Shown piece after piece: positions 5,480-5,655 of a stretch of 6,254 nucleotides of DNA; position 1 is the first letter of the stretch, and each line of letters starts with the position of its first letter. Location: IMG/VR virus record IMGVR_UViG_2623620503_000006; one strand, given 5' to 3'. The position numbers were made by a program, and so were the translations under genes. Below the pieces are notes generated by a model that was not told the DNA's origin, ran no database searches, and saw only the letters and a list, made by a program, of their open reading frames with translations. This DNA is from a virus (Duplodnaviria > Heunggongvirae > Uroviricota > Caudoviricetes).

Positions 5480-5502
5480 AAAACATTTCCATATCAAATG
5501 CA

Positions 5503-5608
5503 GGGTCCGACATGGAAGTGCTCAAAAACGTCTTTTTCGGGCACTTTCATGTCGGACCTTTTACGGATGTGATTGATGAAAAAACAATGAGTTATACACG
5601 AGAAGTAC
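5503..5608 (-). promoter_or_regulatory. cosB-like region: three R-like repeats (putative TerS binding sites) sharing a TGTCGG core
   Basis: Plus 5503-5520 (ggtccgacatggaagtg) and plus 5542-5558 (cactttcatgtcggacc) are 17-bp inverted copies with one mismatch. A third, weaker copy (gcgtgtcggtac on the minus strand) lies at about 5594-5606. On the minus strand their order and orientation (direct, inverted, direct) and their distances from the putative cosN (about 60-75, 110-125, 147-164 nt) mirror the R3, R2, R1 arrangement of lambda cosB as recalled, but the repeat sequence differs from the lambda CGTTTCC-type repeat. The AT-rich tract between the R3-like and R2-like copies may be an IHF-type bend site. 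Confidence 0.5.
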
Positions 5609-5655
5609 CGACACGCTTTTTCCCGAAAAATTTTCATAAATAGCGAAAATCCGCG

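Follow-up and report, generated by a model that had tools for sequence, protein, structure and literature searches.

Since the 1980s and 1990s, the difference in packaging specificity between the phages lambda and 21 has served as a textbook genetic system. Both phages share the same cos layout, and either phage favors its own DNA over that of the other by more than 1,000-fold in packaging (PMC4669245, PMC9026076). The difference resides in the recognition helix of the small terminase subunit, TerS, and in the sequences of the R boxes, with critical contacts or clashes that involve bp 56 and 59 of R3 and residues 20 and 24 of TerS. The R3 segment contacted by TerS extends from bp 55 to bp 63 (PMC4669245, PMC9026076).

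The whole stretch of DNA that was analyzed, in the following the window, is 6,254 nucleotides long. Judged by its sequence, the minus strand between positions 5480 and 5700 is a complete lambda-type cos, composed of cosQ, cosN, and a tripartite cosB (R3, I1, R2, and R1) and followed by the predicted cognate TerS gene. The features are given below in window coordinates, with the base pairs of the cos site numbered as in the phage 21 record OL657228 and bp 1 at window position 5667.

5690 to 5696, minus strand: cosQ heptamer GGGTCCT, assigned by sequence and alignment
5656 to 5667, minus strand: cosN cohesive-end segment GGGCGGCAGCGG, bp 1-12
5624 to 5638, minus strand: cosN-adjacent segment TATGAAAATTTTTCG, bp 30-44, equivalent to I2, a putative IHF site in the annotation of the phage 21 record M81255 (14 of 15 positions matched)
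5603 to 5618, minus strand: R3 box AAGCGTGTCGGTACTT, bp 50-65, matched to the annotated phage 21 R3 at 15 of 16 positions
5582 to 5594, plus strand: IHF-like site I1, AAACAATGAGTTA, bp 74-86, between R3 and R2, with one mismatch to WATCAANNNNTTR
5545 to 5560, plus strand: R2 box, inverted with respect to R3 and R1, reading AAGGTCCGACATGAAA on the TerS strand and matched to the phage 21 R2 at 16 of 16 positions
5502 to 5517, minus strand: R1 box TTCCATGTCGGACCCT, with the core TGTCGGACC versus the phage 21 core TGTCGGGCC
4931 to 5479, minus strand: gene for the small terminase subunit TerS, 182 amino acids, Phage_Nu1 family (Pfam PF07471)
4756 to 4959, minus strand: remnant of TerL, about its first 69 codons, joined in frame to about 545 C-terminal codons of lambda J

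A sequence-only reading of this DNA had described three copies of a motif around TGTCGG(A/T)(A/C)C at the positions and in the orientations of lambda R3, R2, and R1. This was borne out by a motif search of the full 6,254-base window, which returned three exact matches to TGTCGGWMC, at 5504-5512 (minus strand), 5550-5558 (plus strand), and 5605-5613 (minus strand), and no further copy beyond those at the R positions. Read in the direction of TerS, on the minus strand, R3 is forward, R2 is inverted, and R1 is again forward, as they are in lambda and in phage 21. The shortness of the motif, 9 nt, is the sole point in favor of a chance or low-complexity feature devoid of function, but the three copies compare with 0.24 expected by chance and were reached in none of 200 dinucleotide shuffles, they are located at fixed positions relative to cosN and to the ATG of TerS, and of the 40 distinct upstream sequences of the phage 21 class, 36 to 39 retain these three cores. 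A chance origin of the repeats has next to no probability and is excluded.

While the three copies are real, their extent had been given too narrowly. An end of the region at position 5610 cuts through R3, and the repeat units are longer than 9 nt, with arms of 25 nt in the case of R1 and R2 (88% complementary, 5 nt between them) and of 28 nt in the case of R2 and R3 (71% complementary). The core of R3 is TGTCGGTAC at bp 55-63, with a G at bp 56 and at bp 59. Alignment to the annotated phage 21 records gave AATCGTGTCGGTACTT for the phage 21 R3 versus AAGCGTGTCGGTACTT in the window and TTTCATGTCGGGCCTT for the phage 21 R1 versus TTCCATGTCGGACCCT. The proposed departure from lambda, a TGTCGG core in place of the CGTTTCC-type repeat, was found as described. 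Matches to the IHF consensus numbered 2 versus 4.0 expected and are not significant alone; the argument for I1 is its position, since the I1 annotation of OL657228 likewise covers bp 74-86.

The motif search located all three R cores ahead of the TerS gene and returned no core within it, which is not the arrangement of an N15-type simple cosB. At the level of the sequence, the locus instead contains the elements of a lambda-like complex cos: the three R boxes as defined in PMC9026076, an IHF-like I1 between R3 and R2, R3 at its fixed distance from the cosN nick (about bp 50-65), a cosN with a conserved left half and CG flanks, cosQ, and a gene for a Nu1-family TerS immediately downstream. The predicted nick region reads ACG, GGGCGGCAGCGG, and CGC in succession, so that CG dinucleotides are kept beside both nick positions, and the segment TATTTATGAAAATTTT that follows cosN is conserved and common to lambda. 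The cosQ heptamer, a highly conserved 7-bp site (PMC4669245), is located 22 nt upstream of the left nick in the window, compared to 23 nt for both lambda and phage 21. The proposal of a cosB with lambda architecture and a cognate TerS encoded downstream is well supported by this arrangement.

The TerS gene starts with the ATG at position 5479 (MKVNKK...), bp 189, and not with the TTG at position 5497 taken from the mechanical list of open reading frames. Its product matches PF07471 with an E value of 2.3e-83 over residues 1-163 of 182; it shares 94% identity with phage 21 gp1 (11 substitutions) and 53% with lambda Nu1. At residues 16-24, the recognition helix reads PRTIERWQS and includes E20 and S24, where lambda has Q and E; residues 8-27, which span this helix, are identical to those of phage 21 gp1. 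The claim that the helix-turn-helix differs from the GASIRTIQNW of lambda Nu1 is confirmed by this alignment. Compared to the solved DNA-binding domain of phage 21 TerS (PDB 7LWR), 49 of 54 residues (91%) are identical. The five changes among the first 54 residues are K7, S28, V30, G32, and V37, four of them (residues 28-37) being within or beside the wing. The wing residue K35, which has been implicated in DNA contact (PMC9026076), is retained.

With its PRTIERWQS helix and with R boxes that have a G-C pair at bp 56 and at bp 59 in place of the T and C of lambda, the locus possesses the sequence features of the phage 21 class. It contains neither the CGTTTCC-type R boxes and the (I/V)RTIQNWQ(E/D) helix of the lambda class nor the CAGATCC-type R boxes and the VRT(I/V)TAWQS helix of the Gifsy-1-like class. 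When the stretch with cos and TerS was compared to phage records by megablast, phage 21 was among the best matches, at 87.8%. The cos site and TerS are very probably both members of the phage 21 packaging-specificity class.

The anatomy of the site and its identity with phage 21 were read directly from the sequences, and binding, cleavage, and specificity of this cos and TerS are inferred from the published work on phage 21. Because E20, S24, and the G residues at bp 56 and bp 59 of the R boxes are all present, the mechanism of phage 21 may be assumed to apply here. As in phage 21, the winged helix-turn-helix of TerS would recognize the R boxes through the major groove, IHF would bend the DNA between R3 and R2, and TerS bound to R3 would position TerL to nick cosN at a distance of about 47 bp, which would start packaging toward the TerS gene.

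Covariation of the R repeats with the TerS helix, which the sequence-only reading had proposed as a check in homologous prophages, was evaluated in 36 loci from species-representative genomes and 80 loci from IMG/VR, each anchored on cosN and on the TerS start. In 92 cos-anchored loci, the class of the TerS helix predicted the R3 core without exception. The PRTIERWQS helix was present in 61 loci, 56 of which had the R3 core TGTCGGTAC and 5 the single-base variants AGTCGGTAC, TGTCGGTAT, or TGTCGGTGC. Among the 17 loci with an (I/V)RTIQNWQ(E/D) helix, the R3 core was TTTCCGTTC in 16 and TTTCTGTTC in 1, and the 14 loci with a VRTITAWQS or VRTISTWQN helix had (CA)GATCC-type R3 cores. Between the classes, all three R boxes switch together. 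The opposite outcome, the same TerS helix beside an unrelated sequence at the R positions, was absent in 61 of 61 loci. The sampled loci fall into three discrete classes of TerS helix and R boxes, lambda, 21, and Gifsy-1-like, with zero intermediates; this partition of the relatives, a direct observation, recovers the known split between lambda and 21 and adds the Gifsy-1-like class.

The members of the third class (L087-L100, L105, L106, and L101) have CAGATCC(G/T)TTC R boxes and fit the pattern of the Salmonella phage Gifsy-1 although their TerS is up to 86% identical to that of the window. Nu1 and cos sequences that look identical to those of lambda occurred on short contigs or at contig ends (L014-L021, L029, L031-L037, L039, and L040) in assemblies of unrelated taxa, such as Kitasatospora, Paenibacillus, Chromatium, Pseudomonas, Shewanella, and others, which looks like contamination of these assemblies by lambda DNA or vectors. 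For the E. coli K-12 relics nohD (DLP12) and nohA (Qin), a phage 21-like type was considered and rejected since the alignment places both in the lambda class.

The clustering of four substitutions versus phage 21 at residues 28-37, in the wing region, could mean that changes in the wing and in the R flanks have retuned recognition into a new specificity unlike those of lambda and 21, so that the terminases of phage 21 and of this locus would not cross-package. Within the phage 21 class, wing variants do occur together with specific flanks of R3 (AAGCG as opposed to AATCG or AATCA) and with R1 variants (TGTCGGACC or TGTCGGCCC versus TGTCGGGCC). The associated sites, however, are less than 200 bp apart and represent two or three sublineages, so that linkage is sufficient to explain the association without selection; moreover, the recognition helix, bp 56, and bp 59 are the same as in phage 21, and K35, with its role in DNA contact (PMC9026076), is retained. 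A new specificity is considered very unlikely, and assignment to the phage 21 class is preferred.

The R boxes are embedded in longer units. Each R core (5502-5560 and 5603-5640) has, 9 to 17 bp upstream, a T-tract with C(N)GG behind it (TTTTTCGGG or TTTTTGAGC), and when this flank is counted, the repeat unit comprises about 28 bp rather than 16 bp. T-tract-like flanks also occur in the lambda class, and the Gifsy-1-like class has A-tracts at these positions of R2 and R1. The flanks may be related to wing or minor-groove contacts.

As a consequence of the 28-bp unit, the region from R2 to R1 is a 55-nt palindrome. It is near perfect, with 22 Watson-Crick pairs and 1 G-U pair among 23 pairs, and is more perfect in the window than in phage 21. 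This inverted repeat might mainly be an RNA hairpin in a late transcript, or a DNA cruciform, that controls translation or transcription of TerS, instead of a pair of protein sites. Its fold z-scores are strong, -4.9 for RNA and -6.6 for DNA, and the pairing is maintained across loci of the phage 21 class: in 14 distinct sequences, 89.8% of the cells were paired compared to 27 to 52% with the partners slid. The covariation, however, was not above that of shuffled sequences, since the observed values were reached by 268 to 333 of 500 shuffles. The G-U cells (32) and A-C cells (17) track the lineage and not the strand, which indicates that no RNA-specific constraint acts on them. R3 possesses the same core outside of the hairpin, and its sequence tracks the helix class of TerS. 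No Rfam family matched anywhere in the window, and the promoter and terminator scans remained at chance level, including a terminator-like match. These tests gave no evidence of a function at the RNA level. A hairpin or cruciform as the main function is extremely improbable, and two long R units arranged symmetrically on the DNA account for the palindrome.

The cohesive end varies independently of these classes. The sequence GGGCGGCAGCGG departs from the GGGCGGCGACCT of lambda and phage 21 at bp 8, 9, 11, and 12 and is present in 11 loci of the phage 21 class; the Gifsy-1 cohesive end, GGGCGGCAGCGT, is one base away from it. At least six cohesive-end variants are spread over the three cosB classes in the related loci, and GGGCGGCAGCGG, GGGCGGAAGGCG, GGGCGGCGTCCG, and others occur in more than one class. 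This indicates that cosB and the right half of cosN reassort independently of each other, in agreement with the published weak constraint on bp 7-12 of the cohesive end, which vary naturally, tolerate mutation, and are little constrained (PMC4669245).

In the region of cosQ and the spacer that separates it from cosN (5668-5696, minus strand), the spacer sequence, TCCGGTGGGGTGGTCTGCCACG, is unrelated to that of lambda and phage 21 and recurs in other phage 21-class and lambda-class loci with variant cohesive ends. Two IMG/VR contigs, L052 and L086, contain the R3, R2, and R1 of the phage 21 class and a TerS gene with a GTG start, and at the position of cosN, about 150 to 190 bp upstream of the TerS start, GGGCGGC is replaced by an unrelated sequence around CACCGAGGGTCATAGCACGCGCAAAAACGCGC. 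This is either a different type of end or a decayed site.

Downstream of TerS, the TerL remnant is part of a chimeric open reading frame of 616 codons (3112-4962, minus strand), residues 2-70 of which are identical to residues 1-69 of the TerL of E. coli ARS-C101, with J domains found by Pfam at residues 94-616. The junction between TerL and J is located at 4755/4756, and the identity with lambda DNA stops at position 4755. Window positions 1-4755 are 99.9% identical to phage lambda and comprise the C terminus of J, lom, and stf, the last being full length with 776 codons as in Ur-lambda; this lambda-derived part adjoins the non-lambda packaging region of the phage 21 class. Assignment of positions 1-4755 to the Rac prophage, based on matches to K-12 strains, was rejected, because this DNA is lambda itself in lambda-lysogenic K-12 derivatives. 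The chimera indicates a deletion from about codon 70 of TerL to the middle of J, by which all head genes and most tail genes were lost. With TerL lost beyond about codon 69 and head genes missing, the cos site cannot bring about packaging of the element that bears it; any action would have to be in trans, with a helper of the phage 21 class. The locus is the relic of a decayed lambda-like prophage.

A stretch of 830 bp with cos and TerS is 100% identical to the window in E. coli ARS-C101, with the same IS3 upstream, and there it precedes full-length TerL and the genes for portal, protease, decoration, and capsid proteins. Related sequences occur in 1,262 of 5,426 complete E. coli genomes, about a quarter, and near-identical copies (95% or more) in only 21 records. 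Between cos and the IS3 end, positions 6022-6058 contain an inverted repeat with perfectly matched arms of 16 nt and a loop of 5 nt (TTATAGAAGTCCTTCA ctgta TGAAGGACTTCTATAA). Positions 6133-6254 contain what is probably the IS3 terminal inverted repeat and the end of the element (TGATCCTACCCACGTAATATGG...). The annotations of E. coli VG48B2 and ARS-C101 include the same IS3 insertion.

Two further ideas about the locus, a tuned sub-specificity inside the phage 21 class or the retention of TerS and cos in a relic devoid of TerL to interfere with superinfecting phages of this class, have to be regarded as improbable. Interference, if true, could involve titration of terminase or abortive starts of chromosome packaging.

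The value of the locus as a discovery is small since it repeats the known phage 21 type. Cos sites of prophages are without RefSeq annotation, and homology places the cos to the base.

Compared to the described systems, the locus shares with lambda the layout of the tripartite cosB, the IHF site, cosQ, the left half of cosN, TATTTATGAAAATTTT, and the Pfam family of TerS. It differs from lambda in the R core (TGTCGG versus TTTCCGTTC or CGTTTCC) and in the helix (PRTIERWQS versus IRTIQNWQE), which are the published specificity determinants that separate lambda and 21 (PMC9026076, PMC4669245). Only the right half of its cosN resembles Gifsy-1, whose CAGATCC-type R boxes and VRTVTAWQS helix represent the third class. 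N15 has lambda-like cohesive ends and tolerates variation at bp 7-12 (PMC4669245) but lacks an IHF site and possesses a single R3, with a remote rR2 located within its TerS gene, in contrast to the three R boxes and I1 of the window.

The differences from phage 21 (M81255, OL657228) are the cohesive end (GGGCGGCAGCGG versus GGGCGGCGACCT), a cosQ 1 bp nearer to cosN, an A instead of a G as the seventh base of the R1 core along with changed R1 flanks, an R2 shifted by 1 bp, the substitutions in TerS, and the truncated TerL. The order cosQ, cosN, R3, I1, inverted R2, R1, and TerS is that of phage 21, as are the positions of R3 at bp 50-65 and of the ATG at bp 189, and the R3 core TGTCGGTAC, the 16-bp R2, and the PRTIERWQS helix are all identical. 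Of the packaging specificity distinct from lambda that had been proposed, the part concerning the determinants holds, for they are unlike those of lambda, but the implied novelty does not, because with its identical helix, R3 core, and R2, the pair is the phage 21 type itself. The cos site and TerS form a pair of an already known type, one more copy of the well-characterized phage 21 pair.
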